From a virus (taxonomy: Duplodnaviria > Heunggongvirae > Uroviricota > Caudoviricetes): a DNA stretch of 7,996 nt. Location: the IMG/VR virus record IMGVR_UViG_2609459791_000005, positions 1-7,996 of that record. One strand, given 5' to 3'. Shown here piece after piece: positions 1 through 7,996 of this stretch. Every line of letters begins with the position of its first letter. Position 1 is the stretch's first letter. Below the pieces are notes generated by a model, which made no database searches, had not been told where the DNA came from, and saw only the letters and a program-made list of their open reading frames with translations. Made by a program: the position numbers and the translations under genes.

Positions 1-222
1 ATGCAATCCATTAACTTCCGTACCGCGCGTGGCAACCTTTCTGAAGTGCTCAACAATGTTGAAGCCGGGGAAGAGGTTGAAATCACCCGCAGAGGCCGTG
101 AGCCAGCAGTAATTGTCAGCAAGGCTACTTTCGAAGCCTACAAAAAAGCGGCGCTGGATGCTGAATTTGCATCCCTGTTTGACACCCTGGACTCCACCAA
201 CAAGGAACTGGTTAACCGATAA
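1..222 (+). CDS. phd: Phd antitoxin (type II toxin-antitoxin, Phd/YefM family), P1 prevents-host-death protein
   Basis: 73-aa [76 protein letters not shown] matches my recollection of P1 Phd in sequence and length. Its stop overlaps the next ATG (TAATG at 220-224). The window begins at its start codon, so its promoter is not visible. Confidence 0.9.
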
Positions 223-602
223 TGAGGCATATATCACCGGAAGAACTTATTGCGCTTCATGATGCGAATATAAACCGCTACGGCGGCCTGCCGGGCATGT
301 CAGATCCGGGTAGGGCAGAGGCCATTATCGGGAGAGTTCAGGCCAGAGTTGCCTACGAAGAGATCACCGACCTTTTCGAAGTCTCCGCCACCTACCTGGT
401 GGCTACGGCGAGAGGGCATATATTCAATGATGCCAATAAGCGTACCGCGCTAAACAGTGCGCTGTTATTTCTACGCCGTAACGGGGTGCAGGTATTTGAT
501 TCACCTGAACTGGCAGACCTTACTGTAGGCGCTGCGACTGGCGAGATATCTGTATCTTCTGTCGCCGACACGTTACGTAGATTGTATGGTTCTGCGGAGT
601 AG
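222..602 (+). CDS. doc: Doc toxin (Fic-fold kinase, death on curing)
   Basis: 126-aa ORF directly coupled to phd. It contains the Fic-type motif HIFNDANKR (about 417-443). Sequence and length match recalled P1 Doc. Confidence 0.9.
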
Positions 603-606
603 ATTA

Positions 607-786
607 ATGGCACGCAAATACAACAAATTGTCCCGTGAAGCGTTAAAGATGCTTCTTGATGGCGTGAGTCGCCGCGAGGTAAAGCAATACCTGGTTGGTA
701 AGCAAATTGGAGCCAGGACTGCTATTGCTGTGTTATGCCGTCAGGAAATGGTTGTGCTTAAACAGAGAATGCCGGGCAGCAGATAA
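607..786 (+). CDS. small hypothetical protein with helix-turn-helix-like segment; possibly the first P1 post-doc gene by synteny
   Basis: ATG at 607 lies 7 nt after a GGAG (596-599) and just past the doc stop. The ORF track gives an in-frame upstream ATG at 586 that would overlap doc. The segment SREALKMLLDGVSRREVKQYL looks like an HTH. No family recognised from memory. Confidence 0.4.
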   Translation: MARKYNKLSREALKMLLDGVSRREVKQYLVGKQIGARTAIAVLCRQEMVVLKQRMPGSR

Positions 787-813
787 AGCCCAATCAGTGA
801 TGAAAGGTGTGAT

Positions 814-1857
814 GTGAAAGCCGTAATTACTCCCTTTGTACAAAAAGAGCTTGGCGTCGCCACATTCAAAGTGGATCAGGAAGTCAGAAAGCTGGTGGAG
901 GCTGGCCGTAAATTTATTATGGAGCCGGTGCCGCGTGAGTTAATCGAGCACATGGACGACGGCCTCGTTGTTTCCGAGCAAACTATGGCAACAAATGAGG
1001 CGTTGCAGCCGTTTTTTAACAGCGATGAACTGTTTCGCCGTATTGGTGGAATTGACGCGCTGGTGGCGTGGTTGCGCAGGAAAGAGGGGCAATGCCAGGC
1101 CGCAGATCGTAGCTGCTGTGACAACCATATTGTCCACGCAGAACGAGACAATAGCGCGGTGTTGTTGTGCTGGCATCACGATAACCATTACCGGATGCGT
1201 GGTTTTAATGAGCTGAAAGAAACGCTGCATAATAATCGCGTTAACTGGATACTGGATGTCGCCCGTCAGGAAATGGGGCTTTCAGATGGCCATGATTTAA
1301 GTATTCAGGAACTGTGCTGGTGGGCTTTCATGCGCAACATGATGCACCTGATGCCGGAAGAAGTTTGCCGTATATCAATAAATAAGATGAAAGCCGCAAC
1401 GCAGGATAGCGGACCTCTGAAAGAGGCGGATATTCGCCCGTATGACGATCGCGCTACAGCATATGTTCAGATGATGGAAGAACGCGCCGCGCCGATGCGT
1501 GCAAAAGTATGCCCTGTGGATGTTGACTCCGACCCTGGCATGGCGCATTTCAAAATACCAAAACTGCAATCGCTAAAATTACCTGAGTACATGGACTTTG
1601 TTGCTTCCCGTCCATGCTGTGGGTGTGGAGCGGCGGGAGCTGGCGCTCACATTACGCCTTATATCGTTCGTCATAGTCGATTATGCGCGCATGACATTTA
1701 CGCAATTCCTCTGTGCCAGTCATGCCAGCGTGATATTGAGCGTGACCGCGATAATTGGGAGAAGACGCACGGTAGGCTGGCGATGCATCAACGATTGTTC
1801 TTTGATTACGCGCTTGGAGTCGGCGCTATCACAAGTCACTCGTCGAGCGTTAGATAA
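814..1857 (+). CDS. Cys/His-rich protein with two HNH-like / DUF968-like zinc-motif units; possibly P1 PdcB by synteny
   Basis: 347-aa ORF with GTG start at 814 preceded by AAAGGTG. Motif units are [25 protein letters not shown] and [38 protein letters not shown]. Three Chi octamers lie inside the gene. The name is from recalled P1 gene order, not a search. Confidence 0.6.
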
Positions 1858-1858
1858 A

Positions 1859-1875
1859 ATTGCTCTAATGTATTG
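1859..1875 (+). promoter_or_regulatory. C1 repressor operator-like site upstream of lpa
   Basis: ATTGCTCTAATGTATTG matches 14 of 17 positions of the P1 C1 operator consensus ATTGCTCTAATAAATTT as I recall it. It overlaps the -35 of the candidate promoter below. Confidence 0.55.
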
Positions 1876-1903
1876 CTATTTCTTTAATCGAGGGTGTTAT
1901 ATT
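1873..1903 (+). promoter_or_regulatory. candidate sigma70 promoter for lpa (-35 TTGCTA, extended -10 TGtTATATT)
   Basis: -35-like TTGCTA at 1873-1878 and TG at 1895-1896 followed by TATATT at 1898-1903. The spacer is long (about 19 nt), so the exact elements are uncertain. Confidence 0.35.
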
Positions 1904-1945
1904 CCACGTTGATTAGTTGACATGGGCTAATCAGTAGGTGACAGG

Positions 1946-2398
1946 ATGTTACTTAACTGGCAGGGACGCCACTTCATGGAAATAAATCACTCACGAATAA
2001 CATCGTACGAGATTGCGGATTACATGATCCGCACTAAATCTCTTCTATCAGCGAAAGAACTCGCAGCAATTCTTGAAAAGGAATACCCGCATCTGGATGT
2101 CGATAAGCGCGATGTTTATCTGCGCTTAAAGGCTATCGCTGTGTCTAAGTATTCGTCTGTTTTGATTGATGACAGTACACGCCCACGTAGATTTCAGATC
2201 CACTCTCTGAATCCTGAATTCTTTCGCCGTAGCCGCGCTCCGCGCCGGTTTGATGAAAAACTCCAGAACGAACTCTATATGACGCAGGACGAAAAGGAAC
2301 GCCGGGAGCACCAGCCTTGGGTAATGGCGCGTCAACTTTTCAATAAGGTGGCCCGTCAGCACCGTCATTACGGTAATGCCACATCCGCACGTATCTGA
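1946..2398 (+). CDS. lpa: late promoter activator Lpa (P1 gene 10) candidate
   Basis: 150-aa ORF immediately upstream of pacA, preceded by AGGTG (1936-1940) 5 nt before the ATG and by a C1 operator-like site. Assignment is by position and known P1 gene order (gene 10 next to the pac operon); the protein sequence itself is not recalled. Confidence 0.6.
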   Translation: MLLNWQGRHFMEINHSRITSYEIADYMIRTKSLLSAKELAAILEKEYPHLDVDKRDVYLRLKAIAVSKYSSVLIDDSTRPRRFQIHSLNPEFFRRSRAPRRFDEKLQNELYMTQDEKERREHQPWVMARQLFNKVARQHRHYGNATSARI

Positions 2399-2408
2399 TT
2401 GATTGCTT

Positions 2409-2428
2409 GCCCGTTCCGGGCCTTTTGA
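2409..2428 (+). terminator. weak candidate intrinsic terminator after lpa
   Basis: GCCCG-TTC-CGGGC hairpin (2409-2421) followed by CTTTT. The stem is short, hence low confidence. Confidence 0.25.
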
Positions 2429-2458
2429 CATGTGACTTTCGTTACCCTCGCGTCAAAA
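2423..2458 (+). promoter_or_regulatory. candidate late-promoter / regulatory element upstream of pacA
   Basis: Near-palindromic TTGACATGTGAC (2425-2436) plus a flanking inverted repeat TTTTGAC(2423-2429)...GTCAAAA(2452-2458), about 50 bp upstream of the pacA start. The pac operon is known to be Lpa-dependent, but I cannot recall the late-promoter consensus with confidence. Confidence 0.25.
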
Positions 2459-2483
2459 AGAGTTTTTACGAAAGGAAGCATAA

Positions 2484-3677
2484 GTGACCTGGGACGATCA
2501 CAAGAAGAATTTTGCTCGCCTGGCGCGAGATGGTGGTTACACCATCGCACAGTATGCCGCCGAGTTTAATCTTAACCCTAATACTGCACGTCGTTATCTC
2601 CGTGCCTTCAAAGAAGACACCAGGACAGCGGACAGCCGCAAGCCAAATAAGCCAGTCAGGAAGCCACTAAAAAGCATGATCATTGATCACTCTAATGATC
2701 AACATGCAGGTGATCACATTGCGGCTGAAATAGCGGAAAAACAAAGGGTTAATGCCGTTGTCAGTGCCGCAGTCGAGAATGCGAAGCGCCAAAATAAGCG
2801 CATAAATGATCGTTCTGATGATCATGACGTGATCACCCGCGCCCACCGGACCTTACGTGATCGCCTGGAACGCGACACCCTGGATGATGATGGTGAACGC
2901 TTTGAATTCGAAGCTGGCGATTACCTGATAGATAACGTTGAAGCGCGGAAGGCCGCGCGCGCTATGTTGCGTCGGTCCGGGGCCGATGTTCTGGAAACCA
3001 CTCTTCTTGAAAAGTCTCTTTCTCATCTCCTTATGCTGGAGAACGCCAGGGATACGTGTATTCGCCTGGTGCAGGAAATGCGCGATCAGCAAAAAGACGA
3101 TGATGAAGGTACTCCGCCTGAATACCGTATCGCGAGCATGCTAAACAGCTGTTCCGCGCAGATAAGCAGCCTGATCAACACCATTTACAGCATCCGGAAT
3201 AACTATCGAAAAGAAAGCCTGGAGGCGGAAAAGCACGCTTTGTCTATGGGGCAAGCTGGCATTGTTAAGCTGGCATACGAACGAAAGCGTGAAAATAACT
3301 GGTCAGTGCTGGAAGCAGCTGAATTCATCGAGGCGCATGGCGGGAAAGTGCCGCCCCTGATGCTGGAGCAAATCAAAGCCGATCTGCGTGCTCTTAAGAC
3401 CAATACCGATGATGAGGAAAGGCAAACAGCCGTTGGTGGCCCTTCTCTTGAAGATCTGGACAAAGTTGCGCGAGAACGGGCCGCCAACCGCCGCGCCGAT
3501 GCCGCATTGTGGATTGAGCAGCGTAGGGAAGAAATCGCCGATATCGTTGATACAGGCGGTTATGGAGATGTTGATACTGAAGGTGTATCAAACGACCCAT
3601 GGCTGGAACAAGACCTGGACGAAGACGAGGAGGAAGACGAAGAAGTTACCCGCAAGCTATACGGGGATGATGATTAA
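2484..3677 (+). CDS. pacA: terminase small subunit / pac-recognition protein PacA
   Basis: 397-aa ORF with GTG start 5 nt after AAAGGAAG. N-terminus [42 protein letters not shown] is HTH-like, and the C-terminal tail is acidic ([13 protein letters not shown]). The pac hexamer clusters lie inside the gene. Length matches recalled P1 PacA. Confidence 0.9.
2677..2835 (+). other. P1-type pac packaging site: four TGATCA hexamers, spacer, then three TGATC(A/G) hexamers, each carrying a Dam GATC
   Basis: TGATCA at 2677-2682, 2684-2689, 2696-2701 and 2711-2716. TGATCG at 2807-2812, TGATCA at 2819-2824 and 2830-2835. This matches the published P1 pac architecture of 4+3 hexanucleotide elements flanking the cleavage region. 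Confidence 0.85.
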
Positions 3678-4531
3678 TGGCCAGAAGTTGCGTAACGGAT
3701 CCACGTTGGCGCGAGCTGGTGGCGCTATATCGTTATGACTGGATTGCGGCCGCTGATGTTTTGTTCGGCAAAACACCTACCTGGCAGCAGGATCTGATTA
3801 TTGAGTCTGTGCAGGAACAGGGTAGCAAGACATCTGTTTCGTCTGGTCACGGTACCGGGAAATCAGACATGACTTCTATCATGATCATGTTGTTCATAAT
3901 CATGTATCCCGGTGCCCGAGCCATTATCGTTGCGAACAAAATTCAGCAGGTAATGACCGGTATATTCAAGTACATCAAGATAAACTGGGCTACTGCCACC
4001 AGCCGTTTCCCATGGCTTGCTGATTATTTTGTTCTGACAGAAACCGCTTTCTATGAGGTTACTGGTAAAGGTGTATGGACTGTAGTACCGAAGGGCTTTC
4101 GTCTGGGAAGTGAAGAAGCTCTCGCCGGTGAACACGCAGATCATCTTCTGTATATTATCGATGAAGCCTCCGGTGTCAGTGATAGAGCTTTCGGTATCAT
4201 CACCGGTGCTCTTACCGGACAGGATAACCGCATCTTATTACTGTCACAGCCTACACGCCCAAGCCAACGTCTAAGGAGGCTGCCAATATGGCTACTATCC
4301 CTACCCCAACTCATCCTGAATTTATCTGCCGCTTTTACTCCTGCCAAAAACGTCACTATCACTTCGTTATTGCACCAACAGAAGATGAGGCCCGCTCTCA
4401 GCTTCCTGACGCCCCATGTATTTTCTCTGCCCGTTTTTCCACTGATTCACGCAATTCTCTCAGTTACTGGTGCCTCCCTGTTAACGCTTCTGCTCAGGAG
4501 GGACTATGAGAACGTCATTAGTCACCCGTGA
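3677..4531 (+). CDS. pacB: terminase large subunit PacB, N-terminal ATPase portion only (truncated; 3' tail of the ORF is not protein-like)
   Basis: Start overlaps the pacA stop (TAATG at 3675-3679). Walker A GHGTGKS at about 3845-3865 and Walker [10 protein letters not shown] at about 4145-4171. Terminase-like sequence runs to QPTRPS (about 4264); the frame then reads a Leu/Ser/Pro-rich string to the stop at 4531. Confidence 0.6.
4288..4509 (+). CDS. icd: Icd-like small protein (host cell-division inhibitor family of immI-type antirepressor operons)
   Basis: 73-aa ORF preceded by TAAGGAGG (4270-4277). Its stop overlaps the next ATG as ATGA (4506-4509). The segment [28 protein letters not shown] resembles Icd-like proteins; length matches recalled P1 Icd (73 aa). 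Confidence 0.5.
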
Positions 4532-5624
4532 AGAGATGATCGAGGCAATTGAACAGCACATTGCCTGTATCAGTACCAGGGATATACCAGGCGTTATTGC
4601 CAACTACTTCATGATCACCAAACAACTTTACCGGAGAAAGGACAAGAACTCGGTTCACCGTATCCTGTTGTCTGATATCCGCGAATACCTGCTCGAACAG
4701 GGTCATCTGAATTACGCAACCGTCGCAGCCGAAGCACGCAAGGAGGCACACAGAATGAAAGCAACTAACGTTAAATCAGAAAAAATTCATGCACCTTCAG
4801 TTCAGGAATCGGAGCTGGTGGTTGTTCAGAATCAGTCTGATGAAATTCCCGTTCTGGAATGGCAGGGAGCGCGTGTAGTGACAACCGAGACTCTTGCTAG
4901 AGGGTATGGGACAGAAACAATCCGTATTCGCCAAAATCATCATGAGAACAAAGTACGCTTTGTTGAAGGGAAGCACTTTTTCAAAGTTGAAGGAGAATCA
5001 TTGCGCGAGTTGAAGCACAGAGTAGCTTTAAACTACTCTGTAAAAATTGCTCGCAATGTTCGCTCACTCACCCTCTGGACAGAACGCGGCGCAGCCCGCC
5101 ACGCTAAAATGCTCGAAACCGATCAGGCATGGGCATTCTTTGAAAAACTGGAAGACAGCTACTTCCGACAAAAAGAACAGCAACCGGTCGCAATCCCCCA
5201 GACGATTCCAGAAGCTCTGCGCCTGGCTGCCGAGTTAGCTGAACAAAAGCAACTTCTGGAACAGAAAGCCCACCAGCTAAATCAGCAGCTGGTGGCCGCC
5301 GCTTCTAAAGTCGATTTTGCCGACCGGGTATCAGTAGCTAAAGGGATCCTGATTGGGAATTTTGCAAAGGTCGTTGGACTTAAACAAAATGCGCTGTTTG
5401 CCTGGTTACGGGAGAACGGCATTCTGATAGCGTCCGGAGGCCGTAAAAATGTACCGTTCCAGCAGTACATCAACGCGGGGTATTTCACGGTGAAAGAAGT
5501 GGTGCTGGATGATGAAGATGGCTACCAGATACGGTTGACGCCTCAATTAACGGGTAAAGGCCAGCAGTGGTTGACGCGTAAACTGCTCGATGCTGGTTTG
5601 TTAAAACCGGTGGCGGCTGAATAA
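4506..5624 (+). CDS. ant: phage antirepressor Ant (ORF6N-like domain plus KilAC-like C-terminal domain); nested in-frame second start at 4755 (Ant2-like)
   Basis: 372-aa ORF with AGGAGG at 4495-4500. ORF6N-like stretch [47 protein letters not shown] and KilAC-like stretch [58 protein letters not shown]. An internal in-frame ATG at 4755 follows AGGAGG at 4741-4746. Confidence 0.7.
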
Positions 5625-5631
5625 TGGAAGA

Positions 5632-5661
5632 ATGCCCGGTTGATGCCGGGCATAATTTATT
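5632..5661. terminator. bidirectional intrinsic terminator between convergent ant and c1
   Basis: Perfect 8-bp stem ATGCCCGG / CCGGGCAT (5632-5639 and 5646-5653) with 6-nt loop, T-rich on both flanks. It sits 8 nt after the ant stop and directly after the c1 stop. Confidence 0.6.
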
Positions 5662-6508
5662 GCGCGCTTTCGGGGTTGTCGTTTACTGGCTGCCCCTTCT
5701 TGGTTTTACGGCTGCGCGTAACTGATGCGGCTGACTTAACCTTTTTCTCTTCGCGAGTGATGGCAATTTGTTTTTTTACATTTTCAATATCTGCCAGGCG
5801 ATATATTTTTGCTTGCGGCCAGCGGCCGCAGATGATCGGTTCTATGGAGTCATAAAGGCTAAATTTTGCTTTTTCGAATTCACCGTTGATGATAATTCCA
5901 TCACGGAGAGTTTCATCGCAGATAAACACGCCACACAGTGGCACATGGTAACTAACTGATTTACCATCATTGTAGTTAGGGCTACTGGAAATGTAGTGGA
6001 CGCGCAGCATTGTTTCGCTAAAGCCGTGTACGCGCATACGGAATTTTTCATCCTCCGGGTACTGCTTCATTAGCTCTTTTGTTGCTTCCAGGTTCTCTAT
6101 GTATTTCGCACTGTGCTCATTGATCCCCGCGCTTTTTTGGATGCGAATGTCCTTATCAATCAGATGAATAATGCGGCCAGCGGTCATGTTGACGCTGTTC
6201 ACAGCTTCTGTCTGATAAGTTGTAACCTTACGCACACCGCGAAGGATGTTAGGCACTGGATATAAAATAGTCTTTGGGATATTGAGGTCTGGGTACTGTT
6301 CCAGTTCCCGCGCCATTAAAGTCCATTTATCAATTTCAGCCTGAATGCTGTCAGTTTCTTTGAACGGTAGAACGACAACCGGGCGTACAGGACGACCGTC
6401 GCTGGCTGTATCAACGTGTTGGGCGCGTGCAACAGCTTTTTTTAGAAAGAGATCCCTGAAGCTGACGAACTCCTGGTACAGTTGTTCGCCGTAGACATAA
6501 TTTATCAT
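5657..6508 (-). CDS. c1: C1 master repressor of lysogeny (immC)
   Basis: 283-aa ORF MINYVYGEQLYQEFVSFRDLFLKK... matches recalled P1 C1 in sequence and length. Strong SD GGAGGAGG precedes the ATG on the minus strand. Confidence 0.9.
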   Translation of the reverse strand: MINYVYGEQLYQEFVSFRDLFLKKAVARAQHVDTASDGRPVRPVVVLPFKETDSIQAEIDKWTLMARELEQYPDLNIPKTILYPVPNILRGVRKVTTYQTEAVNSVNMTAGRIIHLIDKDIRIQKSAGINEHSAKYIENLEATKELMKQYPEDEKFRMRVHGFSETMLRVHYISSSPNYNDGKSVSYHVPLCGVFICDETLRDGIIINGEFEKAKFSLYDSIEPIICGRWPQAKIYRLADIENVKKQIAITREEKKVKSAASVTRSRKTKKGQPVNDNPESAQ

Positions 6509-6602
6509 TGATCCTCCTCCAGAATTGACATGGTCAATAACGCCCGGCTGAGAAAACCGGTCATTACTGACCTATATTATAGAGGGATCAAACGAAAATA
6601 AT

Positions 6603-6619
6603 AGATTTATTAGTGCATT
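6603..6619 (-). promoter_or_regulatory. C1 operator-like site (Op99e-like) overlapping the c1 promoter, between coi and c1
   Basis: Minus strand reads AATGCACTAATAAATCT, 14 of 17 matches to ATTGCTCTAATAAATTT. A TATAAT hexamer lies downstream on the minus strand at plus coordinates 6576-6581, consistent with an autoregulated promoter. Confidence 0.5.
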
Positions 6620-6828
6620 TATTGTGAGTCTAACTGGTTAGTTGCCATGAGATATTCGATTGTGTCAGTGAGGTCATCCAGGTCGTCTTGGGTGATGCGG
6701 TACTCCTGATTGGATATCTTTGAGTAGTGTTCAGCAATGGCGCGGGCTGCGTCGGTTTCGGCAGGGTCTACAGATAAAGCGTTAGAGCAATGTCTAACGT
6801 CGTCGATGGTTGGTTGAATGAAAGCCAT
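6619..6828 (-). CDS. coi: Coi, C1 inactivator
   Basis: 69-aa acidic ORF immediately upstream of c1 on the same strand. Position and length match recalled P1 coi. Confidence 0.8.
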   Translation of the reverse strand: MAFIQPTIDDVRHCSNALSVDPAETDAARAIAEHYSKISNQEYRITQDDLDDLTDTIEYLMATNQLDSQ

Positions 6829-6947
6829 AATTATGCCTCACTGTATTGACAACACAGAGCCTGAAGCTCTGACCTACTGTTTCACCCATGATCCATGCTG
6901 GGGTAATCTAACAACGTTGCGCTGTGTGTAAGATGAGCAATGCATAG

Positions 6948-7996
<1,049 letters not shown>

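Follow-up and report, generated by a model that had tools for sequence, protein, structure and literature searches.

Chi octamers in a pacB-truncated P1-like phage-plasmid and their genome-wide context

Chi is the regulatory sequence of RecBCD in enteric bacteria. We analyzed its occurrence in a 7,996-nucleotide stretch of a virus of the Caudoviricetes (IMG/VR record IMGVR_UViG_2609459791_000005, positions 1 to 7,996; the whole stretch is termed the window), identified by homology as the immC-proximal segment of a P1-like phage-plasmid (Punavirus) of Escherichia coli. Eight Chi octamers lie in this window. They are very probably genuine Chi, and part of a genome-wide Chi enrichment of P1-like phage-plasmids. 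According to figures that PMC12315714 quotes from Lobocka et al. (2004, J Bacteriol 186:7032) and Subramaniam & Smith (2022), the 94.8-kb genome of P1 itself contains 50 Chi. This amounts to one every 1.9 kb, where E. coli has one every 4.6 kb, and no other octamer is as frequent in P1. The Chi richness that a first-pass annotation of this DNA mentioned for P1 is thus on published record (PMC12315714). P1 growth is reported to require RecA and RecBCD, and Chi has been proposed to promote recombination of linear P1 DNA (PMC12315714, PMC10028697). LLS, a Chi-rich lambdoid phage without a Rec module, has 20 of its 23 Chi in the active orientation, clustered towards one cos end (PMC12315714).

The window shares with P1 the octamer, the genome family and the density class, and three of its sites, in gene pdcB, are P1's own. 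Five of the eight are not found in P1: two are sites of the RCS47/SJ46 lineage in the 5' end of pacB, and three lie in an extra icd-ant cassette. One conserved P1 Chi has been lost from the window through a deletion in pacB. As in LLS, the Chi of the host is present above chromosomal density and as the top octamer, with a proposed role in host RecBCD-RecA recombination of linear phage DNA. The E. coli chromosome carries the identical octamer, frequently in the Leu-Val frame CTG-GTG, and presumably elicits an identical RecBCD response. Chromosomal Chi are strongly co-oriented with replication, whereas the window has no significant strand polarity. Densities differ as well, with one Chi per 4.6 kb in the chromosome (PMC12315714), one per 1.0 kb in the window and one per 1.9 kb across the P1-like genome.

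The eight sites and their conservation

Megablast searches of phage and plasmid collections found Escherichia phage RCS47 to be 98.6–99% identical to the window. P1 and P7 were ~95% identical (94.5–99% for P1/RCS47 outside the icd-ant cassette), and hundreds of Escherichia and Salmonella plasmids share the segment. A pattern search of both strands returned eight exact matches to GCTGGTGG, six on the plus and two on the minus strand, agreeing with the first-pass annotation in every coordinate and strand. Conservation was checked in six relatives (P1, P7, RCS47, 673R5, JL22 and SJ46). The sites are as follows.

891–898, plus strand: Chi in pdcB, frame AAG-CTG-GTG-GAG (K-L-V-E); kept in P1, P7, RCS47, 673R5 and JL22, with ACTGGTGG in SJ46
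1059–1066, plus strand: Chi in pdcB, frame GCG-CTG-GTG-GCG (A-L-V-A); kept in all six relatives
1316–1323, plus strand: Chi in pdcB, frame TGC-TGG-TGG-GCT (C-W-W-A); kept in all six relatives
3715–3722, plus strand: Chi at the pacB 5' end, frame GAG-CTG-GTG-GCG (E-L-V-A); found in RCS47, 673R5, JL22 and SJ46, with GCTTGTGG in P1 and P7
3996–4003, minus strand: Chi on the template strand of pacB, ~1.2 kb from pac; found in RCS47, 673R5, JL22 and SJ46, with CTGTTAGC and no Chi in P1 and P7
4814–4821, plus strand: Chi in ant, frame GAG-CTG-GTG-GTT (E-L-V-V), at the border between the Ant1-like N-terminus and the ORF6N domain; found in RCS47 and 673R5, with ACTGGTGG in JL22
5270–5277, minus strand: Chi on the template strand of ant, within a 7-amino-acid insertion relative to P1 Ant1; found in RCS47, 673R5 and JL22
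5288–5295, plus strand: Chi in ant, frame CAG-CTG-GTG-GCC (Q-L-V-A); positional counterpart of the one Chi in P1 ant1 (alignment column 266, also in RCS47 immI ant1)

By gene, this gives three Chi in pdcB, two in the truncated pacB and three in ant, with none in c1, coi or the IS5-family part. The gene assignment agrees with the earlier one of three in a 347-amino-acid gene (pdcB), three in the antirepressor gene (ant) and none in the IS5 part. Sites are mostly conserved across close relatives, with some gain and loss. Those at 4814 and 5270 are cassette-specific, and all relatives carry an additional plus-strand Chi in the 3' part of pacB that is deleted from the window. A search for a longer repeat or motif around the eight octamers found none.

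Chi enrichment beyond codon usage

Dinucleotide-preserving shuffles of the window (n = 200) contained 0.25 Chi on average and 2 at most, against the 8 observed, which bears out the earlier estimate that chance predicts well under one. A stricter control permuted codons within each gene, keeping the proteins and per-gene codon usage fixed (n = 3000). This synonymous shuffle gave 1.25 expected Chi in the window (0.99 plus, 0.27 minus) and a maximum of 5 in the 3000 shuffles, so that the observed number is a 6.4-fold excess. Codon usage, the explanation against which the first-pass annotation had staked its claim, does not account for the density. The 24 one-mismatch neighbors of Chi averaged 0.33 occurrences against 8 for Chi in the window, and 4.9 against 49 in P1. 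Over-representation therefore exceeds base composition and codon usage and is specific to the exact octamer. A host with an octamer-recognizing RecBCD is also in place: the relatives that are 98–99% identical come from Escherichia and Salmonella, and the octamer is recognized by E. coli RecBCD (PMC12315714).

The whole-replicon count against shuffled codons that had been proposed as a check was run on P1 and RCS47, and the excess is genome-wide. RCS47 (115,154 bp) contains 61 Chi (37 plus, 24 minus) and P1 49 (30 plus, 19 minus), each at 0.53 per kb. The P1 sequence was reconstructed from NC_005856 1–48000 and OP279344; at 92.9 kb it is 1.9 kb short of wild type, hence 49 Chi instead of 50, with conclusions unaffected. 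In each of P1, RCS47 and the window, Chi ranks first among octamers. Within genes, 43 Chi were observed in P1 against 6.6 expected by synonymous shuffle (6.5-fold), and 54 in RCS47 against 9.7 (5.6-fold). Enrichment is present on both strands of the genes, at 9–11-fold for template-strand and ~5-fold for coding-strand Chi.

These data bear directly on whether the octamers are a by-product of coding. GCTGGTGG read as xxG-CTG-GTG-Gxx combines preferred E. coli codons for Leu-Val, so that Chi might accumulate with no selection on the octamer at all. Five of the six plus-strand sites in the window do fall in this frame, and the shuffle expectation is ~4-fold higher on the coding than on the template strand. 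The excess nonetheless persists with proteins and codon usage fixed, in the window as in both genomes, and it is larger still for template-strand Chi, which no Leu-Val preference would explain. One-mismatch neighbors are also ten times rarer than Chi. Most directly, Leu-Val lying between flanking G's (G..G) is encoded by CTG-GTG in 52% of cases in P1 and 67% in RCS47; elsewhere the shares drop to 9% and 15% (Fisher p = 2e-6 and 5e-9, respectively). Outside the G..G context, CTG-GTG rates approximate the product of the codon frequencies; the pair is over-used only where the flanking G's complete Chi. A coding by-product is highly improbable on this evidence. The exact Chi octamer bears a signature of selection throughout P1-like genomes, the window included, both statistically and in codon choice, and Chi are built largely by using CTG-GTG for Leu-Val exactly where the flanking G's complete the octamer.

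We infer the function of Chi in P1-like genomes from RecBCD biology and the P1 literature. Linear P1 DNA would arise after injection, as rolling-circle or concatemer tails, at pac-cleaved ends and where forks break in the plasmid prophage. Having entered such ends, RecBCD would degrade them until it met a correctly oriented Chi, then spare the 3' strand and load RecA. The end would thereby be preserved and recombined, allowing terminally redundant virion DNA without two lox sites to become circular. Recombination at preserved ends would also help concatemer formation. Headful packaging would place ends at many positions, so that Chi would be needed in both orientations all round the genome; we propose this as the reason for the genome-wide presence of both.

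Several points weigh against reading the octamers as selected, functional Chi. The synonymous shuffles do not keep codon-pair or boundary-dinucleotide biases, and the G..G-context test covers this concern only partly, as selection may also act on the flanking bases. In place of the source replicon, relatives supplied the whole-replicon counts (RCS47 at 98.6–99% and P1 at ~95% identity), and the genome-wide shuffles used approximate gene models based on open reading frames (ORFs; 91% coding) instead of curated annotation. Selection could act at any of several linear stages, from injected DNA and lytic concatemers to pac-cleaved ends and forks under repair in the plasmid. Given the truncated pacB, the Chi in the window probably now serve the plasmid state only, or are inherited relics.

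The distribution of Chi along the genomes was also considered. At 1.0 per kb the window has about twice the P1 mean density, a marginal Poisson excess (p = 0.03–0.07). Windows of 8 kb with at least 8 Chi make up 14–17% of those in P1 and RCS47, and the densest lie at darB and cre-ref, not at pac. The window was rejected as a local Chi hotspot on these grounds and because its observed-to-expected ratio equals that of the whole genomes (6.4-fold against 6.5-fold in P1 and 5.6-fold in RCS47). The density seen in the first-pass annotation is accordingly no peculiarity of the 891–5295 region. The absence of Chi from the IS5 part is uninformative, since P1 density predicts only ~0.56 sites in its 1.05 kb.

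A Chi-free stretch of ~17 kb was observed in both genomes (31,884–49,395 in the reconstructed P1; 36,810–53,930 in RCS47). It spans tail-fibre, baseplate, sit and sim genes, and its GC content is only slightly under the genome mean. Its probability under random placement is ~0.002–0.004.

Orientation around pac and the truncated pacB

The gene layout of the window was transferred from the RCS47 and P1 annotations. The Punavirus gene order phd-doc-pdcA-pdcB-lpa-pacA-pacB-c1-coi is present with high nucleotide identity, and arrays of Dam hexamers flank pac inside pacA. The features other than Chi are as follows.

1–222, plus strand: phd, addiction module with doc (1–602 together); no Chi
222–602, plus strand: doc, addiction module with phd; no Chi
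586–786: pdcA, from the RCS47/P1 annotation
814–1857, plus strand: pdcB, the 347-amino-acid gene, Pfam DUF968 (E = 3e-50); three co-oriented Chi
1946–2398: lpa, from the RCS47/P1 annotation
2484–3677, plus strand: pacA, containing the pac site
2677–2711 and 2807–2830: pac hexamers TGATC[AG] in pacA, four in the first array and three in the second
~2761–2768: pac cleavage point, by alignment with the annotated P1 pac
3677–4263, plus strand: truncated pacB, first ~196 codons; two Chi
4288–4509, plus strand: icd-like ORF, overlapping ant
4506–5624, plus strand: ant; three Chi
5657–6508, minus strand: c1 repressor; no Chi
6619–6828, minus strand: coi; no Chi
6948–7996, plus strand: IS5-family element in imcA; no Chi

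The IS5-family element interrupts imcA at the same position in the window and in RCS47, where it forms one end of a composite insertion with dms genes. In the deposited 673R5 record, pacA (L009, 2483–3674) is annotated as split into Pac1 and Pac2, c1 is covered by three ORF fragments, and the ant-like gene of the cassette is a 258-amino-acid 'Roi'. The split and shortened ORFs of this record suggest frameshifts or sequencing errors.

A strong strand bias had been claimed for the Chi of the window. The 6:2 split is not significant against 50:50 (p = 0.29), nor against the 3.7:1 ratio (p = 0.68) that is expected because nearly all genes of the Chi-bearing region are on the plus strand. It matches the Leu-Val frame preference on plus-strand genes. 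Permuted headful ends predict no single Chi polarity. P1-like genomes carry Chi in both orientations with no significant polarity (P1 30:19, RCS47 37:24, window 6:2), whereas LLS is strongly oriented. Such a pattern agrees better with circularly permuted headful ends than with a fixed cos end.

Orientation was next related to the direction of packaging, as the first-pass annotation had advised. P1 packaging is assumed here to proceed from pac in the direction of pacB, c1 and lox, after the P1 literature of Sternberg and co-workers. An upper-strand Chi is seen by RecBCD arriving from the right (PMC12315714). Plus-strand sites would therefore act on leftward and minus-strand sites on rightward RecBCD. 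At the packaged pac end, 3996 and 5270 would guard against RecBCD, 3996 being the first correctly oriented Chi; at the unpackaged end, 1316, 1059 and 891 would do so.

It could be that the 891–5295 cluster is a local device, placed and oriented to protect both ends cut at pac. Three plus-strand sites lie 1.45–1.9 kb left of pac, suited to leftward RecBCD from the unpackaged end, and two minus-strand sites lie 1.2 and 2.5 kb to its right, suited to RecBCD entering the packaged end after injection. All left sites are plus and the nearest correctly oriented right sites are minus, in each case the active orientation for RecBCD leaving pac under the rule of PMC12315714. The hexamer arrays around pac (~2761–2768) are intact, and Chi density is about twice the P1 average. 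Plus-strand Chi also predominate to the right of pac, however (3715, 4814, 5288 and the deleted site in the pacB 3' part), and polarity does not change at pac. Both 3996 and the cassette are missing from P1 and P7, and the first minus-strand Chi clockwise of pac in P1 is in cre, more than 5 kb away. Three co-oriented sites within 430 bp are no surprise in a set of 49 (~0.3 expected, by a rough estimate). The density argument is met by the marginal Poisson excess (p = 0.03–0.07), by the 14–17% of 8-kb windows that are as dense, by the location of the densest at darB and cre-ref, and by an observed-to-expected ratio equal to the genome-wide one. We consider a pac-centered device improbable.

Equally doubtful is a broader proposal in which the Chi pattern would encode headful geometry. 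The pdcB trio and 3996/5270 would rescue the pac ends, a dense zone clockwise of pac would mark successive headful ends, and the 17-kb Chi-free stretch would lie beyond the first three of ~4 headfuls. If true, the RCS47-type lineage would recently have improved protection of its packaged pac end, partly through the Chi-dense icd-ant cassette.

The state of pacB affects how the sites can be used. Homology to pacB ends at position 4263, and 1237 bp present in RCS47 (L001, 5265–6501) are missing. At the deletion junction (4263/4264), pacB breaks off after ~codon 196 and runs into the ribosome-binding site of the icd-like ORF. A ninth Chi and the C4 and isrK RNA genes were lost with the deleted segment. 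The window lacks the complete pacB terminase subunit that a functional phage requires. The element is probably a P1-derived, packaging-defective P1-like plasmid. The pacB/icd junction was found in one piece in none of 72,556 PLSDB plasmids, 5,426 complete E. coli genomes, genome_contigs and viral_contigs. As the junction was met in no other element, the truncation was probably a recent event and tells little of long-term selection.

Chi might alternatively be kept because the prophage, a low-copy plasmid in E. coli, depends like the chromosome on RecBCD repair of broken forks, with no role at virion or packaging ends. The great majority of P1-like elements are plasmids of Escherichia and Salmonella, with more than 500 P1-like plasmids in PLSDB. 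Chi occur in both orientations round the genome, and all eight sites are kept here although pacB is truncated. At 0.53 per kb, however, Chi are 2.4 times as dense as in the E. coli chromosome (0.22 per kb), more than simple equilibration with the host explains, and the reported need of P1 growth for RecA and RecBCD argues for a role at the lytic or infection stage. A probably recent truncation is also a weak guide to long-term selection. An exclusive plasmid-state role is unlikely, though it deserves more weight than the pac-centered readings, and fork repair is partly complementary to the preferred explanation of genome-wide selection for Chi at linear ends.

Origin of the icd-ant cassette and implications

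P1, P7 and SJ46 lack the segment 4264–5656, whereas 673R5 (98%), RCS47 (90%) and JL22 (89%) carry it in the corresponding position between pacB and c1. Its proteins are paralogues of those of P1 immI, with 79% identity to Icd for the Icd-like protein and 55% to Ant1 for Ant, and nucleotide identity is 70–81% over parts. The icd and ant ORFs overlap as in an immI-type module, and Ant carries the Pfam domains KilAC (ANT) and ORF6N. Upstream of the cassette in RCS47, Rfam identified an isrK-like small RNA (60 bits) and a C4 antisense RNA (75 bits) at L001 6256–6334 and 6379–6466, which mark the RCS47 cassette as a complete second immI-like module. Upstream of icd in the window, Rfam matched neither C4 nor isrK, as both fall in the deleted segment. 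The ant copy of the window is therefore without an antisense repressor of its own, and now lies immediately downstream of pacA and what is left of pacB.

Ant itself is a mosaic. Residues 1–90 and ~215–372 align with P1 Ant1. The ORF6N domain between them (116–202) bears no relation to the middle of Ant1 and shares 61% identity with AntB from the lambdoid Stx phage 2851. The antB-roi region of 2851 (1.9 kb), the only lambdoid homologue checked, contains no Chi. This is consistent with long residence of the cassette in a Chi-accumulating genome. The first-pass annotation had taken the shared Chi density as a sign that the cassette came from a P1-like genome. A P1-family origin is largely correct as judged from homology. 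The Chi density on which the argument was built is not by itself diagnostic of source, because Chi-rich lambdoid phages exist (PMC12315714).

The Chi richness of P1 and its RecBCD dependence were already known, and the window represents a correct re-discovery; the increments over published work are the lineage-specific Chi sites and the codon-context test only. The Chi signature of a P1-type phage-plasmid is recognizable from raw sequence and survives a strict codon-preserving control. While it does not discriminate the source of a cassette, Chi richness is an annotation cue for long residence in an enteric, RecBCD-exposed lifestyle.

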